Shown here: piece after piece, positions 8,201 to 61,131 of the stretch
How positions within the stretch are numbered: the first letter of the stretch is position 1
How the letters are laid out: every line of letters starts with the position of its first letter
Notes under the pieces: model-generated
Database searches by the model: none
Told to the model about the DNA's origin: nothing
Seen by the model: only the letters and a program-made list of their open reading frames with translations
From: Gemmatimonadales bacterium UBA7835
Lineage (GTDB): Bacteria; Gemmatimonadota; Gemmatimonadetes; Longimicrobiales; Gaopeijiaceae
Direction of reading: 5' to 3'
Assembly: GCA_002500925.1 (NCBI GenBank)
Contig: DLTN01000123.1
Coordinates: forward strand, 5,291-69,290
Length of the DNA stretch: 64,000 bases
Made by a program: the position numbers and the translations under genes

Positions 8201-8417
8201 GTGCCAGCTTCTGAGCAAGCCTCTGGAGTGTGAGCACCTCAAACCCAACCCAGCCTTCTCCAACTATTGCCAGTCGCCTTAATAGTTCTCGTCCGGCCGC
8301 ATGCGTAGGCGCGACGATAAGCTTCCGAGCAAGTCGATGCCGCCGAGATACGGCAGCAAGAGAATCGACGAGTCGAGGTGTGGTAGTGGTGTCGATCATT
8401 TTACGGTGAAAACCCAT
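5283..8417 (-). CDS. AddB-like PD-(D/E)XK helicase-nuclease subunit with C-terminal Fe-S cysteines
   Basis: A 1044 aa ORF. Nuclease motif HVIDYKTGSAK. Cysteine set SCPLRY ... CKYCDFSDIC is typical of the AddB iron-staple nuclease domain. I saw no GxxxxGK[ST] P-loop on reading. Confidence 0.78.
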   Translation of the reverse strand: MGFHRKMIDTTTTPRLVDSLAAVSRRHRLARKLIVAPTHAAGRELLRRLAIVGEGWVGFEVLTLQRLAQKLAQRGLDRENLDVVDKFEQAALLDRALDSALTDEEGVFGELSEGVGFRDRVHGAILALRLAEVCPRKLDDARFVQWGKKLFLVRVLQRYERLLTERCRADTATVLRLAMAELETEGGRMPAALEADQLLLLPGLSMRGLYGNLISAMSARGGRVLETDPVIGLDVPRSLLWGRSGEPSSGSHLYAPGEAVGGGELVFFSAASIDAELREVLRRVVERGLSWDQVEIIAADGTTYGSALHAIASQLGIPVTYAGGLPISRTRTGRVVKAYLDWIEEGFHASLIRRLLEAGDLRPPKGRGNHAPAALARRFRSLRVGWGRKRYRTQIQEALKGVDRMERGQAEPVDSFERRRNRVREETEAIRAILFPPLKETPAIPDRMGGEGDRVSPAEIARGLRSFLRRVPRGRGADRRAREEVSRVLERIEATLNRRTEFRSAVSILRRHLDLRVRPEIFGDDPDGAGAPWTSTGGALHLSDLEHGGYSGREAVFVVGLDAERMPGGVRQDAVLLDSDRRVLGTGLLTSTELFRERLFSFAAMFARLRGVVTMSFGAWDVSGAQTIAPSSILLHALRLARGDVSLTFDDLQKVIGPVISAIPGAESPALDGDDVWMRALGTSSSIKRGVESVRGSFPGLDRGLAAAEERMFGEPGEVHGIIQPRPEELDPRAKDGVVLSASRLEALASCPLRYLHSVVLGIRSPDDPELDPDRWLDPRQRGSLLHSVFEASLRTSRADGIEPDEAEFEMRALDILQERVDVFRSQVPAPGEGALSREVAGLREDVRSFVRMIRSDSADSIALELKFGIDGDEPVAIELEGGRLRLRGAIDRVDQDLHGLHVIDYKTGSAKRYGADVFGGGRRLQHAIYARVAEERLGVEVVDGQYHFPTRSGQNQRFIYDRDEMSRLEDLLEFLLDGVVRGRFVPTDDPEDCKYCDFSDICRARRDEYGNVSSPLAAWAEEHTGDVVSPEFEQFQKVRSFEK

Positions 8418-8534
8418 CGGCTAGCATTAGAGCCAAGATACGTTTATCGCACGGCGTGGGGGAGAGCCCGTAGCGCCAAGGTCGCATCTCCCGTAGCCTT
8501 TCCAATGTCCATCACGATACGACGTGAGCTTACC

Positions 8535-9782
8535 ATGATTCGATGCACCCTAACCTCCAAATTCACCGTAGCAATGCTCTTCACATTGGCAACTGCGGTT
8601 ACTCCCTCACTTTCAGCTGGTCAGGACTACTGGCCTGGCGCTCACCTCGACTGGGAGCGGCTAGATCCGGCCTCAGCAGGTTTTGATCCTGTAAAGCTCG
8701 CCGAAGCGGTCCGGTTCGCTATAGCCGCGGAGTCAACCTCACCCAGAGATCTGGCACTCAATCACGACATGTCATTTGGCCGAGAGCCGAGAGGCGAGGC
8801 GATCGGGCCATTCACGGTTCGTGCCCCTCAAAGTGGTGTCATCGTTCACAAGGGATATATCGTCGCTGAGTGGGGTGACCCCGAAAAAGTCGACAACACA
8901 TTCAGTGTAGCCAAAAGCTTTCTGTCCACGACTGTTGGCTTAGCTTGGGACCGAGGATTAATACGAAGCGTGGATGACCGGTTGCGTTCTTACATGCCGC
9001 CGATTGTCCTCGAGCCGGGGGATGGTGAGCCGAACGATCAGGAGGGGAGGCGCCCAAAGCTACTTTTCGAATCTGACAACAACCAGAAAATCACTTGGGA
9101 TCACCTGCTTCGGCAGACCAGTGATTGGGAGGGCACTTTATGGGGAAAGCCCGAATGGGCAGACCGGCCCGACCAAGATCGATCAACATGGCTAACGAGG
9201 GAACGTGTTGAACCCGGAACAGTGTATGAATACAACGACACTCGAGTGAACCTCCTCGCATTAGCCGCTACGAGTGTGTGGCGTCGTCCTCTGCCGGAGG
9301 TCCTGCGCGAATACGTTATGGACCCGATCGGTGCGTCACCCACCTGGCGCTGGCATGGTTATCAGAACTCTTGGATCATCATGGACGGGGTCATGGTGCA
9401 GGCGCCAAGCGGAGGGAGCCATTGGGGTGGAGGCATGCTAATCAATGCCTACGACCTCGCTCGCTTCGGATTGCTCACTATGCACAAAGGCATGTGGGAT
9501 GGGAAAAGGATCATCTCTGAGGAATGGATCGACCTGTCCACGACGCCAGGTGATGTAAACGAGTCATACGGCTTCATGAACTACATGCTAAACCCAGACG
9601 GCAGCCGCTACTCTAATGCGCCTGATTATACATGGACTCACTCAGGCGCGGGGTCAAACCTCGTTTACGTCGACCCTGCTAATGAGCTTGTGGTGGTTGC
9701 CCGCTGGATCCGAGGCAACCAAATGAATGACTTGCTCGGCCTAGTCTTTGACGCAATGGGAGACCTAGCAACCGCACGCTGA
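8535..9782 (+). CDS. Secreted serine hydrolase (beta-lactamase/transpeptidase-like family)
   Basis: Signal-peptide-like start MIRCTLTSKFTVAMLFTLATAV at the ATG at 8535. SxxK motif FSVAKSF. The longer track ORF from 8301 would overlap the AddB-like gene. Confidence 0.75.
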   Translation: MIRCTLTSKFTVAMLFTLATAVTPSLSAGQDYWPGAHLDWERLDPASAGFDPVKLAEAVRFAIAAESTSPRDLALNHDMSFGREPRGEAIGPFTVRAPQSGVIVHKGYIVAEWGDPEKVDNTFSVAKSFLSTTVGLAWDRGLIRSVDDRLRSYMPPIVLEPGDGEPNDQEGRRPKLLFESDNNQKITWDHLLRQTSDWEGTLWGKPEWADRPDQDRSTWLTRERVEPGTVYEYNDTRVNLLALAATSVWRRPLPEVLREYVMDPIGASPTWRWHGYQNSWIIMDGVMVQAPSGGSHWGGGMLINAYDLARFGLLTMHKGMWDGKRIISEEWIDLSTTPGDVNESYGFMNYMLNPDGSRYSNAPDYTWTHSGAGSNLVYVDPANELVVVARWIRGNQMNDLLGLVFDAMGDLATAR

Positions 9783-9852
9783 CCGGCAGTGTGAACGCCA
9801 CTCTGACGGTGGAGCCAGAAACAATAAGGAGAGGGGTCTCATTCTCTATTCT

Positions 9853-10224
9853 ATGATGAGAAGGTTCTCCTTAATCACACTGCTCATTTCAGTGGGTTGC
9901 TCGACAGGTAGCTCAACAGAGCCTGCCGCGTGCACAAAAGAGTATGTCTATGGGTTACATGCCCAAATCAAGGACGCTCGGAGCGACAGTGCTATCGCAC
10001 AAGGAACGATCCTCACACTTCAGGAGGGCAGCTATCAGGAAGTCGTGACCGAATCATGGGATGGATTGATGATGTTCGGCGCTGGTGAACGTCCGGGCGA
10101 GTACACAGTGACGGCCGAGCGTCTCGGCTACGATGAGTGGACGATGAGCGGAGTAGAGATTTTGTCGGACGGTTGCCACGTCATCCCGGTTTCATTGAGA
10201 GTTCAAATGGCACCGGCATCATGA
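9853..10224 (+). CDS. Small lipoprotein with carboxypeptidase-regulatory-like beta-sandwich
   Basis: Lipobox LLISVGC follows a basic N-terminus. The GEYTVTAERLGYDEW pattern resembles CarboxypepD_reg-like domains. Confidence 0.55.
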   Translation: MMRRFSLITLLISVGCSTGSSTEPAACTKEYVYGLHAQIKDARSDSAIAQGTILTLQEGSYQEVVTESWDGLMMFGAGERPGEYTVTAERLGYDEWTMSGVEILSDGCHVIPVSLRVQMAPAS

Positions 10225-10344: not shown

Positions 10345-12513
10345 CTACTTCACAAAGAGCATGTCCCGATAAGCAGGTACCGGCCAAAGGTCATCAGGCA
10401 CCACGCGCTCAAGACGATCTACTACGTCACGGACGTCATTCATCGCGGGTATAATGTTCGTTCTCATGTGTTCGGCTTTTGAGACCACGTCGTCACCGCC
10501 AAGCTCTTGGTTCACTGACGCTAACAATCCAGTCTTCTCGTTGAGCGCGTCGACTAAGTCATTAACTCGTTGCGCCGTCGCCAGAACACCGCCGGCCTTC
10601 ATACCGAGATCGTCCGCGCGCTCCGCTGTGGTGAGCAAGTTATTCAAGTACCGAACCGCAGCCGGTAAGAACATCGTCTCTGCCATGTGCTGCGCCGTCT
10701 CGCCTTCGATGTTGATAGCTATGAAGTACTGTTCGACAAAGATCTCGAAACGGCTCTCCAGTTCGCGATTAGATAGCACGCCGTATTTCTCGAAGAGTTT
10801 TAGATTCTTCTCGTCCACCATCTTAGGCAAAGCGTCCATGGTGCTGCGCAGGTTCAGTAACCCACGACCCTCTGCCTCAGTAACCCACTCATCCGCGTAG
10901 TTGTCACCGTTGAAGATCACGTGTTTGAATTCGTGGATCTCCGAGGCTAGCAAGGAACGGAGCGCATCATCAAACGATGTGCCTTGCTCGAGTTCAGCTT
11001 CGAGCTTCGTACACAGATCATCAATCGCCTCGGCGACTACGGTATTTAGCACCATAGCCGGAAAAGAAACGCTCTGCGACGAGCCGAGCGCACGGAACTC
11101 CCACTTGTTACCCGTGAAAGCGAAAGGAGAAGTTCGGTTCCGGTCACCCGCGTGCTTAGGGAGATTTGGGAGCGATTTCACTCCAAGGCCAAGAAGGCCA
11201 GAAGGCATACTACTGGTGGCCTCACCTGCCTTCTCAATCTGCTCAAAAACATCCTGAAGCTGATCACCGCAGAAAGCCGAGATAATGGCTGGAGGCGCTT
11301 CGTTAGCGCCAAGACGGTGGTCATTCCCTGCATGGGCTACGGCTGCTCGCAGCAGATCCTGGTGCTTAGCTACAGCCTTTAGTGTAGCCGAGCAGAAGAA
11401 CAGGAACTGCATGTTATCGTGCGGAGTCTCACCGGGTTCCAGAAGGTTCTGATCTTCCGTGCTAAGCGACCAATTCAGGTGCTTACCGCTGCCGTTCACA
11501 CCCTGGAACGGTTTCTCATGCAGTAAGCAAACGAGTCCATACTTTCGAGCCACCCGGAGAAGCGTAGACATTACGAGTTGCTGATGGTCCGCTGCCTGGT
11601 TGGCATCTTCATAGATAGGAGCCATCTCATACTGACCCGGTGCCACCTCATTGTGACGTGTGGTGATCGGCACCCCGAGCCTATAAAGCTCAAGCTCCAC
11701 CTCATTCATGCATTCTAGGACGCGCGATGGGATCGACCCGAAATAGTGATCGTCAAGCTCCTGACCCTTTGGCGGTTTTGTGCCAAATAGCGTTCGGCCC
11801 GCAGTTTGAAGGTCTGGTCGTCGGTAGTAGAACTCCTCGTCGACCAGAAAGAACTCCTGCTCAGCACCACAAGTCGCGGTAACGGGCTTCGATGGAGAGC
11901 CAAATAGTTCAAGGGCACGACGCGCCTGAACGTCAATCACATCCATCGAACGAAGTAAGGGCGTCTTCTTGTCGAGTGCATCGCCCGCCCACGATGCAAA
12001 AACAGTAGGAATGCATAGATACGCCCCGCCCGGACCCTCCATAATAAAGGCTGGTGAGGTCGGATCCCATCCTGTGTATCCCCTCGCTTCGAAAGTGGCT
12101 CGCAGGCCGCCGGTAGGAAATGAGGACCCGTCAGGCTCACCCTGCACAAGCTCCTTACCTCGGAAGTCTGTAATAGCACGGCCGTCCCCAGTCGGCTTTA
12201 AAAAGGAGTCATGTTTTTCAGCTGTGCTGCCGGTCAATGGCTGAAACCAGTGGGCATAATGGGTGGCACCCTTCTCTAGAGCCCACTCCTTCATAGCGGA
12301 CGCTACTGCGTCCGCAACTGACTCGTCCAGCTCTGTCCGGTTCTGGATCGTAGAGAGCAAAGCCTCATACTGCGCACTAGGCATACGAGCTTTCATCTCG
12401 TAGAGACCGAAAAGATTTTCACCAAACACCTCTTCAAGGTTTGTGCGGGTTCGCTTCTCAATCGCAGTTGTCGAGTCGTATTTCGCTGCAGCCAGAGTGT
12501 CGAAGCGTGACAT
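10345..12513 (-). CDS. glnN: Glutamine synthetase type III
   Basis: About 722 aa from the ATG at 12513, which is preceded by GGAG. Size and sequence ([36 protein letters not shown]) are typical of GSIII. Confidence 0.92.
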
Positions 12514-19211: not shown

Positions 19212-19532
19212 TTACCCCTCGTCTTCCTGTCGCTTCCAGAGGCCTAGTAGGTATGCATCATAGCGCTTAGGGTGGCGCCTATAATCCTCAACCCAAACCT
19301 CGAACGGCGGGAGTGCTACACGACGGCTAAGCCACTCCGTTGCTATCCCAACCATCTCAGTGTACGAGATATCATCGGCCTTCGCTTCCTCGGTCAGGAC
19401 ACTGTGAGCCAGGGTGTAAATCTCATCAGGGCTCATGTACACGAGTAGATCCGCCACCTGCGCAGAACAGTAGTCATGATACTTCGCGCGCAGGATGTGA
19501 AGCGGCTCTTCCGAACCTCCTGCTCCATCCAC
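19212..19532 (-). CDS. Hypothetical protein, paralogous to the C-terminal half of ORF 21730-22428
   Basis: A 106 aa ORF. ALPPFEVWVEDYRRHPKRYDAYLLGL aligns with PLPDFESWARDFLARPEAYRLYTHTL of the 232 aa ORF. I recognise no known family. Confidence 0.6.
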   Translation of the reverse strand: MDGAGGSEEPLHILRAKYHDYCSAQVADLLVYMSPDEIYTLAHSVLTEEAKADDISYTEMVGIATEWLSRRVALPPFEVWVEDYRRHPKRYDAYLLGLWKRQEDEG

Positions 19533-19656
19533 CGCGATGCCTCCGCCGGACGTGAATAAGCCCCGCCAAGTTCACATGGCTAGCCAAGAAAGGGCTCTAG
19601 GTCTCCGTCTACTGTTGTCGGCAAAGACTCACTAAAGCAAGCCTTTTGGAGCCTAG

Positions 19657-19869
19657 CTAGAGTGAAGGGGGCCCAACCTGAAGGTCGACTTCCGCGAGGC
19701 TGGACTCTTTTTGACGAAGGTGTCGGTATATAGAACGGCGCGTCAGCCCATACAAAATCACCCTGCTCATGAATTCCGGGTCGTCGGCTTGAAGCTCCTC
19801 CGCCTGGTCTGCGATTTCACGCGGAAGCTGGACAGACAGTTCCACGGAGCGCGTCTCCCACATAGACAA
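19657..19869 (-). CDS. Small ribbon-helix-helix-like protein (putative DNA-binding)
   Basis: A 70 aa ORF. VELSVQLPREIADQAEEL ... EFMSRVILYGL has a strand-helix-helix pattern. A GAGGGCGAGGA Shine-Dalgarno lies about 6 nt upstream of the ATG. Confidence 0.55.
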   Translation of the reverse strand: MSMWETRSVELSVQLPREIADQAEELQADDPEFMSRVILYGLTRRSIYRHLRQKESSLAEVDLQVGPPSL

Positions 19870-20054
19870 TCCTCGCCCTCAATTGACTGTGAAAAATTAC
19901 ACTTCTCTGGGAATCCCTCAGCTCCGCAGAAAACAATCAGCGGAGCCGATGAGAGGCGCTAGCAACCTCAGGGGCAGGAATCCTAAAGAGGTCCGAGAGC
20001 GTGCGCAACCCCTTTTTGGATGAGATTTTACGCAATTACTGCATATGCTAAGCT

Positions 20055-20067
20055 GTTGCAGTGCAAC
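20055..20067. promoter_or_regulatory. Perfect 13 bp palindrome GTTGCA-G-TGCAAC (operator-like)
   Basis: Seen directly in the ORF-free region. The half-site GTTGCAG recurs at 20446-20452. Confidence 0.2.
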
Positions 20068-20568
20068 GACTTAAGAATTTGCCTAAATCCAATAATCAAC
20101 TGTTCCCAAAGATGATCGCAGCTTATACTCTGATGACACTAATAGCCGGAAGCTCAAGTCTTGCATTGCCTTGCGACTCCGGCATGTAGACCAAAACGAG
20201 CAGGACCCGTTGAGATTTTTTTACAAAAACTGGCCAGATAAAAACATTGCGAAGAAAGTGAGTTCGGGGGCTCATTTGCGAATCAAAAAAATCTTCGCGA
20301 GCCTCTCACGGCGCCTTTTCATCTGAGCCGACTCAAGCTAATTGGCCAAGCCCAGCCGACTGAGCACACGAACTCTGTGCAGTCTCGTTAGGACCACGAT
20401 CACGGCAAAGTAAAATGGACTTTCGACGCTTACAAAGATCACGCGAGTTGCAGCGGTCGCGAACGTCGCTAGCGCCAACAGTCCTCTCCGTCCGGTAGCG
20501 ACCCACCGGTCCTAATCAAAGCCCGAAATGGAATCCAGGCGACACTAGTTAGGCACAGAGAACATCAA

Positions 20569-21462
20569 TCAGTGGATGAAGTCAGATCCCGCCATCGGTG
20601 ACTGGATGCGGACGGTACTCACGCTCGGTTCTCGGATCTGAAGCCCTGCCAGAGTCTCACGTGCGCCAAAGGTGTTCATCAAAGCTTCGATCGAAGAGAA
20701 GCGTTCTGCCTCAAAGCGCGCCATCAAAGCAACCAGGCCACGTCTCATCTGTCCCAATACTAGACGGGCTTCTCCAAGACCTACTGGAACCGGGAAGCGG
20801 ACGTGATAGGATACCGCATCAGTTCGGGAAGACGGGTCCTCCCGATGGATATCCGCTTCGGTGAACGCCACGCCGAGAGCGTGCTCAAGCTGACGGTCAG
20901 CCGCCTGGAAGGCTGTCTTGAACAACAGTGAACACGTGTCGTAATCCAGATAAGCCCGTGTCAAACGTCCCCGCCCCATCACAAATCGGATCGAAGTTCC
21001 TTCATGCAGATCAAGATCACGACAGATATCGCGGAACCCGACCCGAAGAAAGGTCGGGCGAGAGAGTGGGCCAAATCCGATACGCTCAAGGACCGTAAGT
21101 CCGAGCTTCCGGCTGTAGCTTCTAATGGCATCGTACTCCTGCTTGGAGGAAGACTCGGTAATTAAAGCCGCGACATATTCCACCGTCGGCTCGTACACCC
21201 AGTCAAGCACTACTAACTCCGTACTCAAATCCAGCACCTTCACATTGCCGCTGCCTAGGTCAACAGCTGCTGACGTCGAGGCAAAACGCCCGTCGACGAT
21301 CAGAGCAAGGCCGATATCTTCAATACGGCCACCTGAGGCGTCCGTCTCATGAAGATTCCTATACTGAACAACCGCACGTGTTAGTGGAATCTCACAAATA
21401 CCCGGTACGTCACCCATGGCGTCCGGGCGAGTCTCGGCCTGAGTCATCGAATGAAGCTGCAT
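20569..21462 (-). CDS. Hypothetical protein (297 aa, no recognisable family)
   Basis: A long ORF with coding-like G+C. The ATG at 21462 (MQLHSMTQ) is preceded by GGAGGAG with a 5 nt spacer. The track start at 21567 lacks a Shine-Dalgarno. Confidence 0.65.
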   Translation of the reverse strand: MQLHSMTQAETRPDAMGDVPGICEIPLTRAVVQYRNLHETDASGGRIEDIGLALIVDGRFASTSAAVDLGSGNVKVLDLSTELVVLDWVYEPTVEYVAALITESSSKQEYDAIRSYSRKLGLTVLERIGFGPLSRPTFLRVGFRDICRDLDLHEGTSIRFVMGRGRLTRAYLDYDTCSLLFKTAFQAADRQLEHALGVAFTEADIHREDPSSRTDAVSYHVRFPVPVGLGEARLVLGQMRRGLVALMARFEAERFSSIEALMNTFGARETLAGLQIREPSVSTVRIQSPMAGSDFIH

Positions 21463-42084: not shown

Positions 42085-42990
42085 ATGGCACAGGCCGACG
42101 CGAAAACAACGAATTCAATAAGATCTCGCCTACGCGCCTATTACGATCTAACGAAACCTGGGATCACAGGTTTCGTCATGGTAACCGCGGGAGTGAGCGC
42201 ATTTGTAGCGAGCCGCGGGCGACTAGAGCTCACCTTAGCCATGAACACAATAGCTGGCACAGGGATAGCCACAGCCGGCGCGCTGACGCTCAACCAGTTT
42301 GTCGAGCGCGAAGTCGACACCGTCATGCATCGCACCCAAGGACGTCCATTGCCCACTGGGCGTGTATCACCCATGGAAGCTCTCGGCTTCGGTTCCGCAC
42401 TGCTGATTGGGGGACTCATCTACATCGCGCTGGCGCTCGGGGTGTTGCCGGCAGCCATAACAGCAGCGAGCGGACTCATGTATCACGGCGTTTATACGCC
42501 TCTGAAGACCCGCTCTTACGTCGCGACCCTTGCTGGCGCCATCCCTGGGGCGCTCCCGATGCTCATCGGATGGAGCGCCGTAACAAGCTCGATAGACTCG
42601 GGTGCCTTAGCCCTCTTTGCCATAGGTTATTTTTGGCAGCTCCCCCACGTTCTGGGCTTAGCTTGGCTACTTAGAGAAGATTACGCTCGAGCTGGCTTCC
42701 AGCTTCTCCCGCCCGGGGGCGCCCGATCGATCGGTCTACAGATGGTGGCGTCTGTCGCAATCCTGATCCCTATCAGCTGGGCACCGACACTTCTCGGCTT
42801 CACGGCTCTACCCTACGCTGTCGGAGCTACAGTAATCGGAGGGGGCTTCCTGGTTACAGCCTTCAGGGCCCTTCGAGAAATGAGCGACAAAAACGCTCGG
42901 GGGGTCTTCTTTGCCTCACTCCTATACCACCCACTTCTGCTCTTACTCATGATATTTGACACGCTTCGACTACTCATGATCGAGCCCTAA
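42085..42990 (+). CDS. ctaB: Protoheme IX farnesyltransferase (heme O synthase)
   Basis: A polytopic UbiA-family protein with LNQFVEREVDTVMHRTQGRPLPTG and the YTPLK motif. Confidence 0.9.
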   Translation: MAQADAKTTNSIRSRLRAYYDLTKPGITGFVMVTAGVSAFVASRGRLELTLAMNTIAGTGIATAGALTLNQFVEREVDTVMHRTQGRPLPTGRVSPMEALGFGSALLIGGLIYIALALGVLPAAITAASGLMYHGVYTPLKTRSYVATLAGAIPGALPMLIGWSAVTSSIDSGALALFAIGYFWQLPHVLGLAWLLREDYARAGFQLLPPGGARSIGLQMVASVAILIPISWAPTLLGFTALPYAVGATVIGGGFLVTAFRALREMSDKNARGVFFASLLYHPLLLLLMIFDTLRLLMIEP

Positions 42991-42991
42991 A

Positions 42992-44173
42992 ATGAATCGC
43001 TACGTGCTCCGGAAGCCGATAAACATCGCCATCCTAATTGCCATCCTCGCTCCAAGTGTCGTTTGGGCTCAAGCCAATGAACGACTTAGAACACGAGAGC
43101 TAGGGATTCAAGTCGGAGTGTTCCCAACCGGCGTGCACAACGCAATCACGGATGTCAGCGGAGTTCAAGTCGGCCATTCTACTGTAGTTCAGGCTCCGAA
43201 CGTGCGGACAGGGGTGACCGCGATTCTGCCTCACGCGGAGAACGCATACATGAGCCGTGTGCCCGCGGCGCTCCACGTCGGTAACGGTTACGGAAAGCTC
43301 CTGGGGGTCACTCAGGTTCGCGAGCTAGGAGAACTGGAAACGCCAATACTACTTACGTGCACGCTCTGCGTCTGGAAAGCAGCTGATGCCATGGTGGAAT
43401 GGATGCTCGGACAAACCGGCATGGAGAACGTACGCTCACTAAACGCATTTGTCGGAGAGACCAACGACGGAAGGCTTAATGACATCCGTTCTAGACCGAT
43501 CGAACCCGAGCATGTCTTTGCCGCGCTGGAAAGTGCTTCAGGCGGTCCCGTGGCTGAGGGCGGAGTAGGTGCTGGAGCAGGAACTGTCGCATTCGGATGG
43601 AAAGGCGGAATCGGAACAAGTAGCCGAGTTCTGCCCTCGAGCTTAGGTGGATACACCGTCGGGGTTTTAGTCCAGTCAAACTTCGGTGGTATTCTCCAAA
43701 TCGGAGGAGCCCCAGTAGGGAGGGAGCTGGGACAGTACGCCTTCGCCAATCAGGTGGGGCACGACGACGAGTACGATCCAGACACAGATCTCCAAGAGTG
43801 GGGATCAATCATGATCGTGGTAGCCACTGACGCACCGCTATCGGACCGAAACCTTGAGCGTATTGCTCGACGAGCCATTATGGGCCTATCAAGGACTGGA
43901 TCATATGCCAGTAATGGCTCAGGTGATTACGTGATAGCCTTTTCGACCTCCGAACAGGTGCGAAGATCCACTGAGGACGGGATCCACCGATATAGCGATC
44001 TTTCGAACAGTAACGTTAGTGCTTTATTCGAGGCGACTTTGGAAGCTACAGAGGAAGCTATTTATAACTCCCTTTTCATGGCCGAGTCCGTGACAAGCAA
44101 CGGACGCACAATTCAGGCCCTTCCCATCGAACAAACAGTCGATATCCTCAGACGCTATCGGGTCATCCGTTGA
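42992..44173 (+). CDS. P1/DmpA-family aminopeptidase (peptidase S58)
   Basis: A signal peptide plus GETNDGRLNDI and GAGTVAFGWKGGIGTSS motifs. Confidence 0.82.
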   Translation: MNRYVLRKPINIAILIAILAPSVVWAQANERLRTRELGIQVGVFPTGVHNAITDVSGVQVGHSTVVQAPNVRTGVTAILPHAENAYMSRVPAALHVGNGYGKLLGVTQVRELGELETPILLTCTLCVWKAADAMVEWMLGQTGMENVRSLNAFVGETNDGRLNDIRSRPIEPEHVFAALESASGGPVAEGGVGAGAGTVAFGWKGGIGTSSRVLPSSLGGYTVGVLVQSNFGGILQIGGAPVGRELGQYAFANQVGHDDEYDPDTDLQEWGSIMIVVATDAPLSDRNLERIARRAIMGLSRTGSYASNGSGDYVIAFSTSEQVRRSTEDGIHRYSDLSNSNVSALFEATLEATEEAIYNSLFMAESVTSNGRTIQALPIEQTVDILRRYRVIR

Positions 44174-44183
44174 GGAGAGCTAA

Positions 44184-44867
44184 GTGAGCAACTCCGCAGC
44201 CCTGACCGAGTTCGATTGGGACGTTCGTACCCACATCTATAGGTCATTTGCCGAGTCCGGTCAGGCACCCACACTCGGAGATATAGCGGCAGCAGCCCGC
44301 AGCACCGAGAACCGAGTGCAGGTGTCACTTCAGAAACTCTTCGAAGCTCACGAGATAGCCCCTCTGCCTGATGGCAGAGGCATATGGATGGCTAACCCGT
44401 TTTCCGGCATACCCACTGATTATGTGGTCACAACACCAGAGGTGACTTGTTACGCTAATTGTGCCTGGGACGCACTCGGAGTACCGGCCATACTCGGCAC
44501 AGACGGCTGGACTCGCACAAAATGTGCCGAAAGCGGTACTGCACTCGAGTTCGGCATTCTAGACGGAATACTCGGTGGGGACGACGGGGTCATTCACCTT
44601 GTAACACCGTTGCGACGCGCTTGGGAAGACATCGGTTTCACCTGAGCCCACTACCTAGCCTTCCGGTCGGAAGGGCATTTGGATTCCTGGCTCAAGCGAA
44701 CCGGTCATACCGGCGGCGAGACCATATCTTTCTCACAAATGTGGGCACTAGTGCAGCCATGGTACGCTGGTCGTCTCGCGCGCGAGTGGCGAGGAAGAGC
44801 AGCCGTGGACGCCCAGATTATCCTTGAGACATTAGGACTTACAGGACCTTTCTGGGATCTGAGCTGA
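44184..44867 (+). CDS. Alkylmercury lyase (MerB) family protein with an in-frame TGA at codon 154 (candidate selenocysteine; alternatively a pseudogene or a sequencing error)
   Basis: ORFs 44184-44645 and 44679-44867 are in the same frame and are separated only by the TGA at 44643-44645. NCAWDALGVPAILG resembles MerB WCALDTLIFPALIG (Cys96/Asp99). GFT-[TGA]-AHYLAFRSEGHLDSW resembles MerB SFCCHVHFFASVPTAEDW. Confidence 0.72.
44659..44674 (+). other. SECIS-like hairpin downstream of the in-frame TGA
   Basis: CCTTCC-GGTC-GGAAGG is a 6 bp G/C-rich stem with a GGUC loop. The loop begins 19 nt after the TGA. Confidence 0.45.
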
Positions 44868-54627: not shown

Positions 54628-56100
54628 TCAGCGCCAACGGAGTCCACCCATAAACACACGAGCCTGAAGCGACTCTACCGGTGCCCAAGCATCTGTCAGT
54701 GGAGTCCCCGCCGCAGGCACCGGCGATACGACCCATGACGCGTCTAGCGGATCGAGCACAACTTCAGACTCCGCCCCCAGCACAATAAGGTTTTGAGTTG
54801 CCTCCGGATCGCCTGAAGACTCCGTCATATAAATTCGGGTCGCAGGAAAAACAGATTCGAGTGTGGTTCGAAATCGAGCCAAGAAAGCGGTGCCCTCTCC
54901 CGCTAGAGGTGAAAGAATGTTCGCCATAAACACACCTCCAGTCTCAAGTCGTGCTCGCATGTCAACCAGCGCTTCTCGTGTGACCATCGTCCAGGGGACC
55001 GTCAAGAGATGATCAAAGACATCGAGATAGACGAGGTCATAACGGGTACTCCCAGAACGCAGAAACGTCCTCGCGTCTTCATGTTGCACCCTGATAGCGG
55101 GTCGTTCTCGCTCACCGAACGCGAAGTACATTTGCGCTAGCTCTGTCACCTTTGGATCAATCTCCACCACCACGATCTCCATTACCGGGCGCGCCTCCTG
55201 CATCGCGACTGGTACGGTGAGAGCAGCACCCCCGAGCACTAAGGCACGATCGACCTGGTCTATCCACAGGTTCAGCATATCCAAACTCGCCGAAGCATAC
55301 ACATGGGCGGGAGCGCCAGAATCAACGAACTCAGCCGAAGACGAGCCTCCATTCTGCCATAGCTCCCTAACGATCCGGCCATCCGTCCAAGGCCGCTCAG
55401 TTACTGCCACGGCCGTGTATAATGTCTGCCCCGCATAGAGCGTATCAGGCGGCGACCCGGAAGCTAGCACCCCGAGGATTGGAAGTCCGATTACCGCCAC
55501 TAGGGTTCGGCCGCGTTGCGATCGCCCACCTAATATCCTTCTGGATGCAGCCGCCATCAGCATTAGTGCTCCGGCAGTAACACCGAGGAGGACCGATAAC
55601 GGCATGATTGGGAGCAGAAAGAAACCGGTCACAAACGATCCTATGATCGATCCAGCTGTCGCAGAGGCACTTATATCCCCCGCCCGTCGTCCAACAGAGT
55701 CCAAATCGTCCGTATCGGCTTGAACTAAATATGGGACTACCGCCCCCAAACAAAGAACAGGTGGTGCGAAAAGCACCAAGGCACTAACTAGCGCGCCAGG
55801 TATAAAACCAAAGATTTCGCGAGCCAGCCACGGGAAACTTGACCCAATGACAGGAAGGACTCCCGTGATCGAAGCTGTCGCGAGCACGCTTGAAAGTGGC
55901 ACCCGACCTGCATCCGCCAGTCGGCCACCTATATGATTCCCAGCAGCGAGCGCCGTAAGAATGACACCAATGACGGCAGTCCAAGGCACTACCGAAAGCC
56001 CAAATACCGGCGCAATCAGGCGAGCCCCTGCAATCTCTATTGCAAGAACCGCAAAACCCGACCCGAATGCGAGGGCGAAGAATCCGAGGCGTCGTGACAT
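54628..56100 (-). CDS. Membrane-anchored spermidine synthase-like aminopropyl/methyltransferase-fold protein
   Basis: An N-terminal multi-TM region is followed by a SpeE-like fold (VLGGAALTVP, VVVEIDPKV, YDLVYLDVFD). Start ATG at 56100 (MSRRLGFF). Confidence 0.75.
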   Translation of the reverse strand: MSRRLGFFALAFGSGFAVLAIEIAGARLIAPVFGLSVVPWTAVIGVILTALAAGNHIGGRLADAGRVPLSSVLATASITGVLPVIGSSFPWLAREIFGFIPGALVSALVLFAPPVLCLGAVVPYLVQADTDDLDSVGRRAGDISASATAGSIIGSFVTGFFLLPIMPLSVLLGVTAGALMLMAAASRRILGGRSQRGRTLVAVIGLPILGVLASGSPPDTLYAGQTLYTAVAVTERPWTDGRIVRELWQNGGSSSAEFVDSGAPAHVYASASLDMLNLWIDQVDRALVLGGAALTVPVAMQEARPVMEIVVVEIDPKVTELAQMYFAFGERERPAIRVQHEDARTFLRSGSTRYDLVYLDVFDHLLTVPWTMVTREALVDMRARLETGGVFMANILSPLAGEGTAFLARFRTTLESVFPATRIYMTESSGDPEATQNLIVLGAESEVVLDPLDASWVVSPVPAAGTPLTDAWAPVESLQARVFMGGLRWR

Positions 56101-56105
56101 GATGG

Positions 56106-56633
56106 CTAGGATAGTCGGGTAGCCGAACTCATCACGTCCAGGATCTCTATGAGAGTCGTGCGCCCCCGATCCCTGGCGTACCAAGCTCTGATCACCTTAT
56201 ACCGATCAGCCGAAGACATCGAAAGTCCTTCGGCGCGGACCCAAGATTGGATCTCTGTAGGTCGAGGGCCCCACCAACCGATCTCTTTGAAATGTTCGTC
56301 ATAGAATATCACGATCGGAATTGACCGGCTTCGTCCGTCGCTCAGATGAGTATCCATGAGGTCCGGATTATCGTCCCGACCCAAGACACGAAGATCCCAA
56401 CCCACGCGCTCAGCAAGTCGCGCGATCACGGGAAGCGTGTTCACAGCGTCTCCGCACCAGTCCTCGGAAAGTGCTAGGAGGTTCCACACTCCACTAGTCC
56501 TCATTGCCTCTTCAACGACTTCCACCGGCAACCGAGCTCTCTCATACACCGCGCGCCACATATCACGATGTTCTTTCGCACTATCGAGAAACTGAAGGAA
56601 TGTGGACGCGTCATCGAAGCGTTTTTTGTTCAC
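56106..56633 (-). CDS. Thioredoxin-fold family protein
   Basis: LALSEDWCGDAVNTLPV and SIPIVIFYD patterns indicate a thioredoxin-like fold with a single Cys in place of CxxC. Confidence 0.6.
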   Translation of the reverse strand: MNKKRFDDASTFLQFLDSAKEHRDMWRAVYERARLPVEVVEEAMRTSGVWNLLALSEDWCGDAVNTLPVIARLAERVGWDLRVLGRDDNPDLMDTHLSDGRSRSIPIVIFYDEHFKEIGWWGPRPTEIQSWVRAEGLSMSSADRYKVIRAWYARDRGRTTLIEILDVMSSATRLS

Positions 56634-56829
56634 GTAGCCTTTCCGGGATTTCGCATCGCTTCACTTGTCATGCACTGCCACGACACCCTGATGGCTCTTT
56701 TCATCGCGAAACACTCTAGAGTTCCAAATCGTCGTGCACCAATTCTGCTGAAATCTCACTGACCCCCGTCAACCTAGAGAGCACACCTGGCTCCACACTT
56801 AAGCGCTTACCTCTAATTAACACAGGGGC

Positions 56830-58677
56830 TCAGCTCGACTGGCTTGCCTTCTTAGCGGCCTTTTTTCTCTGATTAGGGTCCAGAATCCGCTTCCGAAGTC
56901 GAATCGCATCTGGCGTAACCTCAATCAACTCGTCGTCTTCGATAAACTCAAGAGCAAGCTCAAGTGTAATCTTCCTGGGCGGCTCTAGCTTAATATTCTC
57001 ATCCGAGGCTGTAGTTCGCATATTGGTGAGCTTCTTTTCTTTACTGACGTTTACATCCATGTCGTCGGTTCGGACGTTCTCCCCCACAATCATTCCCCCA
57101 TAAGTTTCGTCTCCGGGGCTCACGAATAGGGTGGCGCGCTCTTGCAAGCCAAACAGAGCGAAGCCGACCGCCTTTCCGGGCCGATCCGCGACCAGGACCC
57201 CGCGGGTTCGCCCTTTTAGTGGGCCCGCCCAGCCACCCCAGTCTTGAAAAGTATGATGAAGAATGCCTTCGCCGCGTGTGTCTGTCATGAACTCAGAACG
57301 GTACCCGAAAAGCCCCCTCGCCGGAATCTTGAAACGAAGCCTCGTAGTACTCGATTCCCCCATCGGCTTCATCTCCGTCATCGCACCCTTCCGCGAGCCA
57401 AGCTTTTCTATAACCGCCCCTACCATCTCAGACGGAACCTCGATCACTGCCTCTTCATATGGCTCCCGTAGCTCTCCGTCTTCGTCTTTGCGCGTGATCA
57501 CTCGAGGCCGGGACACCTGGAACTCATACCCCTCTCTCCGCATAGTCTCCATGAGAATCGTGAGGTGTAACTCACCCCGGCCACTTACAGTGAATGTATC
57601 GGGCTGCTCCGTGTCTTCCACACGAAGTGATACGTTTCGCTCAAGTTCCTTGTAGAGTCGCTCCCGCAGTTGGCGGGTCGTTACATACTTACCCACCTGC
57701 CCTGCAAACGGGGAATTATTAACCGTGAAGTCCACGGAGAGAGTCGGCTCTTCAACAGCGATCCCTCTGAGTCGTTCTCTATGTTCGGGGTCGGTCACGG
57801 TCTTGCCAATCTCGACGCCCTCTAGTCCCGCCAATGCCACTATGTCTCCGGCCTCAGCTTCCTCAACTTCAATCCGCTCCAAGCCACTAAACGTGTACAG
57901 CCTTGAAACCCTTGCTCGCTCTGATGCCGAGGAGTTCTTAACCATCCCAGCACCTCCTAAGTCCAGGAGCATCACCTCCTCTCCTACTCGGACCGAACCC
58001 CGCTCTACCCGACCAATGGCGATTCTCCCCACATATGCTGAGTGGTCGAGCGTGGACACGAGCATCTGAAACGGTCCGTCCTCATCTACCTTCGGCGGCG
58101 GGAAGTAGTCGACGATTGTATCAAATAGCGGGGTCAGATCAACACCCGGTTTGTGAACATCGTACGACGCCCAACCCGCGCGACCCACAGCATAGAGAAA
58201 AGGTGCGTCTAGTTGCTGGTCAGTCGCCTCAAGGTCCATGAAGAGTTCAAGGACCTCGTCATGAACCTCATCCGGCCTCGCATCTCCGCGATCCACTTTG
58301 TTGATCACAACCAGAGGAAGCAGGTCCAGTTCCAAGGCCTTGCGGGTCACAAATCGAGTCTGCGGCATCGGCCCCTCCGCAGCGTCTACCAACAACACGA
58401 CTCCGTCTACCATCCGAAGGACCCTTTCAACCTCGCCACCGAAGTCGGCGTGGCCCGGCGTGTCGACAATATTGATCTTCACATCGTTCCAATGGACGGC
58501 GGTGTTCTTAGCGAGAATGGTTATCCCCCGCTCTTTCTCAAGCGGATTCGAATCCATCACCCGCTCCTCAACCGCCTGATTTTCGCGGAAGATTCCCGCT
58601 TGACCGAACATCTGGTCGACTAAGGTGGTCTTCCCGTGGTCAACGTGCGCGATGATCGCGATGTTGCGAATAGCCAT
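56830..58677 (-). CDS. typA: Translational GTPase TypA/BipA
   Basis: [31 protein letters not shown] and NKVDR motifs. 615 aa. Confidence 0.96.
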
Positions 58678-58734
58678 GGATCTTCAGACACGGGCGTTCA
58701 AGTGGGCAGCACAGAAAGCTAATCGAGCCTTGCC

Positions 58735-58777
58735 GTCCACAGTACTGGGGGGACCTGATCACCCCCGTACTGTGGAC
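58735..58777 (-). terminator. Strong hairpin between the Wzz-like gene and typA (terminator or leader structure; no clear U-tract)
   Basis: GTCCACAGTAC(T)GGGGG pairs with CCCCCGTACTGTGGAC. That is 16 bp with one bulge and a 10 nt loop. Confidence 0.45.
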
Positions 58778-58829
58778 CTCCTTCGCAAGCATGAGACCCC
58801 TAACGCTAGGTCACAGATCAAGCGCTCCG

Positions 58830-59894
58830 CTAATCCCCTCGGTCACCCAAGAGAGGAACCCCACGCACTGCTGCATCCCAACTCTCCTCAAACTCAGCAC
58901 GCGCAGGATCGCCGGTCCTTGGTCGCCGAATCGCCTCCGAAACAAACGCCAGCATGATACCGATCATGCCACCGATCATTGCACCCAGGACGGTCATGAA
59001 CACAAGCCGCCGTGGATCGTTGAGAGGCGGGAAGAATGGGCTCTGGAGTACTGTAATCACAGGCGTGTCACGAACCTCGGTGATTCGGGCCTGCTCATAA
59101 GACTGCACCATCGTCGTCAGTACAGATTGGCGGAGCCCTACCTCCCTTCGTAAACCATCGTGCTGGAAAGTCAACATAGGAGAGTTTTCCCACTGACGAT
59201 TAGTCTCAAGGAATGACCGGAGATTGCCCTCGGCCTCCTCCAAGTTGGCCTCAGCCTCCTCCACACGTGTCTCTATGAACACACGTTCAGAAGCAGCCTG
59301 GGACTGACGTGTATCCATATTGAACAGGGCTACCTCTGTAAGTAGCTCTTCCGCGATTTTCACCGACAGATCCGGCCACTCCGTCTTGACCGAGACCGTT
59401 ACCGTTCCTGTCTCTCGACTGGTCGAAACAGAAACAGCCTCTGTTCGAAGCCACTCTAGGACTTCTTCATCCCTGAGCGCTTCACTGTCCTCATCTATCT
59501 CGAGCAGGTCTTTCAGCTTTAAGATGCCCACTTCGTGCACAGCGAAAGGTTCGTCAGATACACTCGTCAGAATCTCTCTAGAAACAAGTAACTCCTGATA
59601 GAACTGCGGACTTGCTTCATCAGCGACCCCTCCCCCGACATTCACGCCAAGCTGGCCCGCCAGCGCCGCTAGCTGTGAGTTTCCGCCTTGCTCCGATCCC
59701 TGCGGCCGGAACGCTGCGCTTGTCGTGTAGGTCAGAGGTTGAACAAGTGCATAGACTGCGGCTAATGCACTCACAAATAGGGTGAAGACCACGACCGTTC
59801 CCCTGCGACGTACAAGGACCGCCATGATCTCCCAAAGAGAGATCTCGCCGTCGTTGGTCTTTCGAACGGGTGTTAGCGTTTCGAAGTCGGACAT
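58830..59894 (-). CDS. Polysaccharide chain-length determinant (Wzz/GumC-like) protein
   Basis: An N-terminal TM helix, then PLTYTTSAAFRP, a long coiled-coil region and a C-terminal TM helix (LGAMIGGMIGIMLAF). Confidence 0.75.
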   Translation of the reverse strand: MSDFETLTPVRKTNDGEISLWEIMAVLVRRRGTVVVFTLFVSALAAVYALVQPLTYTTSAAFRPQGSEQGGNSQLAALAGQLGVNVGGGVADEASPQFYQELLVSREILTSVSDEPFAVHEVGILKLKDLLEIDEDSEALRDEEVLEWLRTEAVSVSTSRETGTVTVSVKTEWPDLSVKIAEELLTEVALFNMDTRQSQAASERVFIETRVEEAEANLEEAEGNLRSFLETNRQWENSPMLTFQHDGLRREVGLRQSVLTTMVQSYEQARITEVRDTPVITVLQSPFFPPLNDPRRLVFMTVLGAMIGGMIGIMLAFVSEAIRRPRTGDPARAEFEESWDAAVRGVPLLGDRGD

Positions 59895-60030
59895 CGGGAA
59901 ATGGAGTAGGGCCTAACCGAACGCTATGTAAGCGTCCGATTACGGTGGTGTATACGGCCAGATTATCGCAGTCGTTAGTGTCAACAGCAAGCAACTTCTT
60001 ACAAGCGGTGAGCTTCCTCGGGCACCAGAG

Positions 60031-60054
60031 ACTGACTGACTGACTGACTGACTG
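60031..60054. repeat. Tetranucleotide microsatellite (ACTG)6
   Basis: Six perfect tandem ACTG units read directly. They are intergenic, 137-160 nt upstream of the Wzz-like start codon. Confidence 0.95.
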
Positions 60055-60147
60055 CTGAGTTGCTAACTGATCATTTAACGCAAACCGATCTCCGACCATT
60101 GTCTTTTCCGAGTAGGTCAACTTGGCCGTTACATGGCTCGCATCCAG

Positions 60148-61131
60148 TCAGTCTCCCATAACCCAGGAGAAGATCAAGGGCGCCACTATAGTTGCATCCG
60201 AATTGATCTCAAATCTTGGTGTCGAGGGTGAAAGCTTCCCCCACGAGATCTTCTCATTCGCGGGCGCTCCGGAGTACCCACCGTAAGACGGCTGTGCATC
60301 CGTGACCTGACAGAAATAGTCCCAATGTGGAACGTCACGACGAAGGTCTTGAATGATGCATGGCACAGCACAAATCGCGAAGTCTCCTGCAATTCCTCCG
60401 CCCAGCTGGAAAAACCCCACTGACGGAGCGTCACCGGCACCGTGGTTCTCCTGATACCACTCGATTAAGGACTCGAACTGCTCCGTTCCCGACTTCACAC
60501 ACGAATGGTCGGGAAGATTTCCCATCATGACATTAGCTGTGAAAATATTGCCCGTCGTGGAATCCTCCCACCCGGGCGCGTAGACCGGAATCCCGGCCTT
60601 CTTAGCTGCGAGGACCCAGGAGTTCTCTGGCGCGATCTGAAAGTGGCTCTCTAGCTCGGGGTCGCAGAGAATCTCGAAGAGGAACTCCGAGGGCATCTTA
60701 CGTTCTTCCAAGGCGGAAGCACGTTTCCAAGAATCGAGAAGACGTCCCTCTATATGACGCATGGCTGTCTCCGGAATGCATGTGTCCGTAACTCGATTCA
60801 TACCCCTTTCGTACAAAAGGCGCTCGTCAACGTCCGACAGGTCACGCCAAGACGGAACTATCTCGTAATCTGTTCCCGCAACCAGATTGAAAACGTCCTC
60901 CTCTAGATTCGCTCCCGTGCACGAAACCGCGTGCACCTTCCCGGCACTGATCATGCGAGCGAGCGAGACACCTATTTCGCCTGTAGACATCGCCCCGGCG
61001 ATTGCCACAAGCATCTTCCCGCCAGCCTCTACGTGTGATTCATACGCCTTCGCAGCTTCTACGAGCTCTCGCGCGTTGAAGTGCAGGTAGTGCTTTGACA
61101 TAAAGTCACGAATAGCGCCCAACTGCATCAC
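60148..61131 (-). CDS. Deoxyhypusine synthase-like protein
   Basis: LVAIAGAMSTGEIG, VSCTGANLEEDVF and FFQLGGGIAGDF blocks are typical of the DHS/homospermidine-synthase-like family. Confidence 0.82.
   Translation of the reverse strand: MMQLGAIRDFMSKHYLHFNARELVEAAKAYESHVEAGGKMLVAIAGAMSTGEIGVSLARMISAGKVHAVSCTGANLEEDVFNLVAGTDYEIVPSWRDLSDVDERLLYERGMNRVTDTCIPETAMRHIEGRLLDSWKRASALEERKMPSEFLFEILCDPELESHFQIAPENSWVLAAKKAGIPVYAPGWEDSTTGNIFTANVMMGNLPDHSCVKSGTEQFESLIEWYQENHGAGDAPSVGFFQLGGGIAGDFAICAVPCIIQDLRRDVPHWDYFCQVTDAQPSYGGYSGAPANEKISWGKLSPSTPRFEINSDATIVAPLIFSWVMGD

Follow-up and report, generated by a model that had tools for sequence, protein, structure and literature searches.

The window analysed here, a stretch of 64,000 nucleotides (64 kb) from Gemmatimonadales bacterium UBA7835, carries on its forward strand a gene at 44184–44867 that is predicted from its sequence and translation to encode a MerB-like selenoprotein. 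The gene spans 227 codons, from a GTG to a TGA, with a further TGA in frame at codon 154. A GGAG read from the sequence at 44174–44177, 6 nt 5′ of the GTG, resembles a Shine-Dalgarno sequence and may act as one. The open reading frame (ORF) of 153 aa that begins at GTG 44184 stops at the internal TGA (44643–44645), past which the same frame continues for 73 codons (44646–44864) and meets no further stop until the TGA at 44865–44867. The 62-aa ORF that opens at TTG 44679 is the remainder of this frame past the first possible start after the internal TGA. A preliminary description of this DNA had stated that the two ORFs, of 153 and 62 aa, share one frame and are split by the TGA only; sequence and translation agree. 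All these features lie on the forward strand, as does a candidate selenocysteine insertion sequence (SECIS) hairpin at 44659–44674, made up of CCUUCC (44659–44664), the loop GGUC (44665–44668) and GGAAGG (44669–44674).

Read through the TGA, the protein had been described as collinear with the alkylmercury lyase MerB. It matches Pfam MerB (PF03243) with 78.6 bits (cutoff 27) over residues 73–194 and positions 1–125 of the 126 in the profile, and the match crosses the TGA. Alignment with HMMER against PDB sequences places the TGA column on the first Cys of SFCCHVHFF, which is Cys159 of MerB, and so reproduces the alignment given in the preliminary description; the column also falls on the corresponding Cys of MerB2. 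We accordingly refer to codon 154 as the predicted selenocysteine (Sec) codon, a position to which the homologues described below also point. The same kind of alignment (to 1s6l and 3f0p) agrees with the earlier assignment of Cys93 and Asp96, which lie within NCAWDALG (codons for C-A-W-D, 44460–44471), as the equivalents of Cys96 and Asp99 of MerB. Both residues are invariant among 26 homologues.

The input for AlphaFold2 was P0001, a relative that is 66% identical to the window protein and has W at the site, with an alignment of 24 rows (A4). The model has a mean predicted local distance difference test score (pLDDT) of 89.6 and a predicted template modelling score of 0.84. The segment past the TGA is modelled with pLDDT values of 88–98, and the values fall to about 45–53 over the 27 residues that P0001 carries beyond the true stop. 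When this model was compared with the PDB by Foldseek, the top 11 matches were all MerB or MerB2 and no other match had E < 0.01. The best match was 5C17 (MerB2), with a template modelling score (TM) of 0.76 and a root-mean-square deviation of 2.9 Å over 194 columns. Since the significant matches are exclusively to MerB and MerB2 and the part past the TGA is well modelled, the model indicates that the C-terminal piece of 73 aa is integral to a single MerB domain, of whose fold it would form the C-terminal third. The score above the PF03243 threshold, the fold, and the equivalents of Cys96, Asp99 and Cys159 (the third as UGA/Sec) place the protein in the MerB superfamily.

Conservation across the in-frame UGA

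A search of 5.8 billion proteins gave 218 relatives, and 118 of the best 120 of these terminate at ...DIG[F/C/S/L]T, the same end as that of the 153-aa ORF in the window. When 1.84 billion cluster representatives were searched exhaustively with HMMER, 1,015 relatives were found; 110 of the best 150 representatives (clusters at 50% identity) stop exactly at the Sec site. At the DNA level, 79 loci were found by scanning GTDB with one genome per species. The closest loci (94%) are in the metagenome-assembled genomes (MAGs) Gemmatimonadales UBA2975 and UBA2960, followed by other Gemmatimonadota/Longimicrobiales. Hosts at 35–40% identity include Acidobacteriota, Chloroflexota, Actinomycetota, Planctomycetota, Eisenbacteria and Anaeromyxobacteraceae (Myxococcota), and the family spans at least seven phyla, from ocean and soil MAGs and metagenomes.

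For the comparisons that follow we used a set of 82 sequences, the window and 81 loci from independent assemblies of many studies. Directly following the conserved [F/Y/H]-T, every one of the 82 has TGA and none has TAA or TAG, while the real terminators of the family genes are 38 TGA, 31 TAG and 7 TAA. Conservation of the protein restarts at the first codon past the TGA (xxxLxFRSE...W...WRxR...GLxGxFW), and the mean pairwise identity among the 73 complete sequences is 44.6% before the TGA vs 45.5% after it. Codon differences past the TGA are often synonymous; between the window and one of the other loci (L009), 25 are synonymous and 22 non-synonymous. The comparisons indicate that both halves of the gene are under purifying selection. 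UGA alone is conserved at the site, with the downstream frame kept. The preliminary description had proposed to look for homologues that end at the site and are followed by a separate downstream gene; what the 82 loci have is the TGA followed by conserved in-frame sequence.

As a negative control, 3,936 TGA junctions in the window and the fetched loci (~1.3 Mb) were examined, and the MerB-like junction alone is conserved on both sides. No second selenoprotein candidate came out of the scan for TGA-split genes in the window and all loci. One same-frame pair in the window (31895/32459) was considered as a TGA-split gene and rejected, as Pfam shows two separate genes.

Homologues without the TGA, if they existed, were expected to have Cys at the column. 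Three full-length representatives of ~230 aa do (P0240, P0261 and P0270), with the codons TGC, TGC and TGT, respectively. These Cys-forms are collinear with the window protein and 31–35% identical to it over the N-terminal part, before the TGA, and the C-terminal motifs are shared. P0240 reads ...LITT-C-ASMLLFRTE at the site and keeps the C...D...C triad. In P0261 (L083:113–817) and P0270 (L084:1922–2623) the catalytic Asp is replaced by Cys (CAWCSLG and CGFCSLG), giving a three-Cys site. This site recalls the D99S change in MerB, which alters the metal specificity of the enzyme. Cys-forms are scarce, with 3 among the best 150 of the 1,015 representatives, and the ratio of Sec-forms to Cys-forms is ~35:1. 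One further locus (L085:684–731, on contig Ga0604935_0777216 of the Joint Genome Institute, JGI) has TGG at the Sec codon and an intact hairpin that scores 50 bits with model R1. This TGG would be either a one-base derivative of TGA, as a recent inactivating change, or a sequencing error.

The conservation has to be weighed against two readings in which the UGA is not a Sec codon. In the first, the UGA is read through by other means: a near-cognate tRNA could insert Trp or Cys, or UGA could be a sense codon of a variant genetic code. The JGI gene call for P0001 (L002:163–930, contig Ga0589498_11181310), the one full-length hit of the protein search, gives W at the site, and if L085 is truly TGG, with the hairpin intact, a Trp codon does occur in one contig. 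The call for P0001, however, translates two TGAs as W and runs 27 residues past the real end. We considered P0001 as a Trp form and rejected it: the DNA of L002 has TGA at the site, and the second W is a true TGA stop. The W residues are apparently a code-4 artefact of gene calling on a short contig. TGA is also the commonest true stop in the window, where the ORFs of at least 150 aa end with 22 TGA, 14 TAG and 10 TAA (GC 55%), and it ends 38 of the 76 family genes; the genetic code is therefore standard. That TGA serves as a true stop in the window, even in this same gene, had been pointed out before and holds for these 22 of 46 stops. Three of the five non-UGA relatives have Cys at the column, which is a signature of Sec, whereas Trp would be unfit as a metal ligand. 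Leaky decoding, moreover, needs no GGUC hairpin like that of fdhF at the spacing of a SECIS. We consider read-through without Sec improbable, though it is the best placed of the alternatives.

In the second, which we hold to be slightly less probable still, the TGA is a true stop, and the locus encodes a MerB-like protein of 153 aa and a separate protein of ~62–73 aa, perhaps as a split enzyme. Gene callers and GenBank, with its Prokaryotic Genome Annotation Pipeline (PGAP), annotate the genes in this way. An ATG three codons past the TGA in many distant members makes reinitiation conceivable, and in the window TTG 44679 opens the 62-aa ORF. Yet a stop would be expected to use all three codons, as the real stops of the family do, and the site has TGA in 82 of 82. 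Without exception the downstream frame follows in phase and leaves no gap, and in Gemmatimonadota conservation begins at the first codon past the TGA, ahead of any start codon. The Cys-forms are single polypeptides and also have Met at +3. A split enzyme would, in addition, be left without any ligand equivalent to Cys159, and the frozen codons of the hairpin would go unexplained.

The hairpin downstream of the UGA

The hairpin described at the outset, CCTTCC-GGTC-GGAAGG in DNA letters, was confirmed where it had been reported, with the stem starting 13 nt and the GGUC loop 19 nt after the UGA. It lies inside the codons for A-F-R-S-E-G. The stem of the window is 6 bp long, stems of other family members reach 7 bp, and the interval between TGA and hairpin has zero indels among the 82 sequences. 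In this set, 91.6% of the cells in the helix columns (16–22/27–33) are paired, vs 47–65% when the 3′ arm is slid, and 0 of 500 column shuffles attain the pairing or the covariation of the real alignment. U-A and C-G alternate in the two outer pairs, across different amino acids (at 17–32, 48 UA and 19 CG), and in one locus (L073) the closing pair has changed from C-G to A-U, a compensatory substitution. RNAalifold gives the same 6-bp helix with the GGUC loop.

Because the covariation is partly clade-structured, a codon test was added. The Arg codon in the hairpin is CGG in 79 of 82 sequences, vs 28% elsewhere in the same genes (binomial P 1e-40). The Ser codon is TCG in 79 of 81 (33% elsewhere in the same genes; P 1e-36), and the Glu codon is GAA in 71 of 82 (29% elsewhere; P 1e-27). 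These P values ignore phylogeny; synonymous sites are saturated at the protein identities of 35–45% at issue. The Cys-forms do not have the hairpin. Their codons at this position are ttccgcaccgag, ttcgattccgag and ttccgatctgac, and the FRSE motif is relaxed to FRTE, FDSE or FRSD.

A covariance model was built from homologues, with the window and the two relatives nearly identical to it left out. Run on the 64 kb, as the preliminary description had advised for the hairpin region, it finds 44643–44690 with 49.4 bits (E ~4e-13), far beyond chance, and the runner-up has 11.4 bits. The Cys-forms score 15–17 bits or give no match. Searched at gathering thresholds, Rfam has no matches anywhere in the window, and an E-value search of 44560–44780 gives one chance-level match (RF01547, 12.5 bits; cutoff 40). 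Rfam is not known to include a model of the bacterial SECIS, which makes this null uninformative.

Bacterial SECIS elements have a G in the apical loop, and the loop lies 16–37 nt from the UGA. The hairpin of the window has a GGUC loop 19 nt past the UGA, and its helix is backed by pairing, covariation and frozen codons. A likeness to the SECIS of fdhF had been suggested, and it held when we checked it on E. coli K-12: there the TGA is followed, after 18 nt, by a GGTC loop flanked by gttgca and tgcac, and in the window the distance is 19 nt and the loop is identical. Both hairpins stand directly 3′ of the UGA, inside the coding sequence, and carry GGUC as the apical tetraloop. The two differ in stem sequence, and the 5′ arm of the window hairpin has no bulged U. 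The fdhF element goes undetected by the family covariance model.

The hairpin could also be a by-product of the conserved F-R-S-E peptide motif, with no function as RNA. It lies wholly within the codons of the conserved motif, and the fold of the single sequence is not significant. A peptide motif, however, would leave six-fold degenerate Arg and Ser free to vary, and each is fixed on one codon almost throughout (79 of 82 and 79 of 81, against 28% and 33%), as is GAA for Glu (71 of 82, against 29%). Nor would it explain covariation of the outer pairs among sequences that differ in amino acid, or the compensatory change from C-G to A-U in L073, and the Cys-forms, with their relaxed motif, use other codons. 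We regard this explanation as very improbable. Least credible of all is a pseudogene, or a sequencing or assembly error that put TGA for TGC or TGT in the window: this is the default look of a lone in-frame stop in one sequence, but the same TGA recurs in 81 assemblies, which are independent of one another and come from numerous studies and phyla, and both halves appear to be under purifying selection; since the TGA is kept in 82 loci, a read error is ruled out.

Known relatives, selenocysteine machinery and genomic neighbourhood

A single MerB relative with Sec has been catalogued so far, the MerB-like organometallic lyase SaoL (NF040728). It has a C-U motif and belongs to a nine-gene SAO locus that includes an ABC transporter and SaoC/SaoE (Haft & Gwadz 2022, 10.1101/2022.07.06.499078); its hosts are reported in that bioRxiv preprint to be exclusively anaerobic. 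The prokaryotic selenoprotein inventories of 2022 and 2026 (PMC9312934, PMC13188914) list no other protein of the MerB type. The window protein is like SaoL in its PF03243 domain, in an in-frame UGA ~50–70 residues from the C-terminus with Sec at the equivalent of Cys159, and in keeping the equivalents of Cys96 and Asp99; both proteins are routinely truncated in databases. It differs from SaoL in several respects. The window protein scores 23 bits against NF040728 (cutoff 140), over residues 7–128 only, and all 82 loci read [F/Y/H]-T-U where SaoL has C-U. The gene has neither the nine-gene SAO locus nor, outside Gemmatimonadota, a conserved partner, and its hosts are Gemmatimonadota, Acidobacteriota, Chloroflexota and other ocean and soil MAGs.

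With MerB (plasmid R831b; 1S6L, 3F0P) and MerB2 (5C17) the window protein has the fold in common (TM up to 0.76), and its triad occupies the same positions. It differs from them in identity (~20%), in Sec for Cys159 and in having no adjacent second Cys (Cys160). We therefore place the protein, on sequence grounds, in the MerB superfamily as neither canonical MerB nor SaoL. The gene would represent, apart from SaoL, a second clade of MerB-like lyases with Sec, which we call the T-U clade after its motif. In the literature we found no earlier description of this clade, SaoL alone being reported, and the text of BSepDB does not mention MerB. With the 73-aa C-terminal piece as the query, only ten fragments of 42–69 aa were found; the two that have a source name are called "hypothetical protein", and no full-length database entry with U or C at the site was found with this query. 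GenBank names the ~153-aa N-terminal piece "organomercurial lyase". The T-U clade appears to be unrecognised as a selenoprotein.

As for the machinery of Sec insertion, the 64-kb window contains no tRNA genes. An ORF of 615 aa (56830–58677), taken up as a candidate SelB on a weak tblastn match to E. coli SelB, was rejected, as it is TypA/BipA. A tRNA-SeC with the anticodon TCA does occur in a Chloroflexia MAG (L061: 11169–11264, reverse strand), ~0.5 kb downstream of the MerB-like gene. Directly after this tRNA-SeC stands an integrase-like (tyrosine-recombinase-like) ORF (11391–12092, forward strand). The arrangement brings to mind selC, at which genomic islands can integrate. Within the host phylum, Slaby et al. 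2017 (Table S4, PMC5649159) list one SelA and one SelB apiece for two marine bins of Gemmatimonadetes.

Upstream of the MerB-like gene in the window, and in the same orientation, Pfam identifies a UbiA-family prenyltransferase (42085–42990, forward strand) and a peptidase S58 (42992–44173, forward strand), the latter separated from the MerB-like gene by a gap of 10 nt. The two genes probably share a transcription unit with it. Downstream, on the opposite strand, are CoA-transferase III, enoyl-CoA hydratase and DctMQP. This neighbourhood, upstream and downstream, is conserved in 14–26 loci of Gemmatimonadota; the upstream UbiA/S58 synteny is kept in 25–26 of them and not in other phyla. In L001, the peptidase S58 gene (8811–10004) and the MerB-like gene (from 10001) overlap by 4 nt, and in one contig of the European Nucleotide Archive (ENA) the two are called as a single fusion of 308 aa (P0080). 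In L091 an aminopeptidase of family M17 occupies the upstream slot that S58 holds in Gemmatimonadota. A functional link to aminopeptidases was considered and rejected, as among the upstream genes of 46 distant loci no family occurs in more than 3. No sequence cluster is common to more than 4 of the distant loci, so no recurrent neighbours were found outside Gemmatimonadota, and there is no SAO locus around the gene.

Some further observations concern other RNAs and other parts of the window. In a Caldilineaceae MAG (L048), ARAGORN predicts a transfer-messenger RNA (tmRNA; 10837–11240, reverse strand; tag ANTGKAFNFGFASANQMAVAA) directly downstream of the MerB-like gene; it also predicts a permuted tmRNA that overlaps the gene and is probably spurious. 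Two stretches of the window, 8417–9853 and 19532–20569 (1.0–1.4 kb), contain no ORF of at least 90 aa in the non-overlapping annotation set and no Rfam match at gathering thresholds. Genes of the deoxyhypusine-synthase family (60148–61131, reverse strand) and with a spermidine-synthase domain (54628–56184, reverse strand) flank the TypA/BipA and thioredoxin-like genes; the genes at 54628–61131 may form a polyamine module of the homospermidine type.

A putative selenoenzyme for carbon–metal bonds

We conclude from the comparative evidence that the product of the gene at 44184–44867 is very probably a MerB-like enzyme of 227 residues, with the UGA at codon 154 decoded as selenocysteine. The original proposal had the gene as a selenoprotein of the MerB family, with Sec in the column of the catalytic Cys and a hairpin resembling a SECIS; the homologues, the Cys-forms and the covariation support it.

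Several results weigh against this conclusion or against the function that we attach to it. Support for the hairpin is comparative: the fold of the single window sequence is not significant (z = −0.89), the hairpin is short and has no bulged U as in fdhF, and the covariation follows clades in part (C-G in Gemmatimonadota, U-A elsewhere), with few independent events. A tblastn search with E. coli SelA, SelB and SelD found no sel genes in the window or in 1.3 Mb of flanks, and tRNA-Sec is absent from the window and from the flanks other than that of L061. On the side of the substrate, the scores against the MerB equivalog models of NCBIfam fall far short of the cutoffs (35.9 vs 193 for NF009710 and 29.3 vs 200 for NF033555). 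No mer operon (merR, merT, merP, merA) was found near the gene, and in none of the 82 loci do the 6 kb to each side contain a motif of the HMA/MerP/MerA type.

If the UGA is decoded as Sec, the hairpin, as the putative bacterial SECIS, would bind SelB with GTP and Sec-tRNA(Sec), such that Sec is delivered with the UGA in the A site. Insertion of Sec would yield the full MerB fold, and not a 153-aa fragment short of one active-site ligand. Because a conserved Cys-Asp-Sec triad stands in the MerB fold, we propose a role in carbon–metal protonolysis. By homology, the enzyme would cleave a carbon–metal bond, most plausibly Hg–C as in methylmercury. The thiolate of Cys93 and the selenolate of Sec154 would hold the metal, with Asp96 as the proton donor. 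With its lower pKa and its stronger affinity for soft metals, the selenolate could be suited to trace levels of substrate.

We put forward, as a tentative proposal that may well prove wrong, that the protein is a stand-alone lyase for methylmercury or another organometal, independent of mer operons, in aerobic marine and soil bacteria, and the founding example of a second and far wider clade, the T-U clade. If so, the environmental degradation of organomercury in marine and soil habitats would depend on the supply of selenium, and the gene would have been systematically missed or misjudged in surveys of merB because it is annotated as truncated and without Cys159.

The predicted change from Cys159 to Sec marks a separate clade that is larger than SaoL, that comprises 110 or more protein clusters (50% identity), and in which Sec is the dominant state. 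As the genes are annotated in two pieces, both selenoproteome inventories and environmental censuses of merB misrepresent them. The near-invariant GGUC hairpin provides a signature, TGA-N12-NNNTTCCGGTCGGAA, with which members of the family can be found and their annotation corrected. A selenolate ligand in the active site of an Hg–C lyase, if the prediction holds, would bear on the long-discussed antagonism between mercury and selenium, and the gene is a candidate for organomercury turnover outside mer operons.

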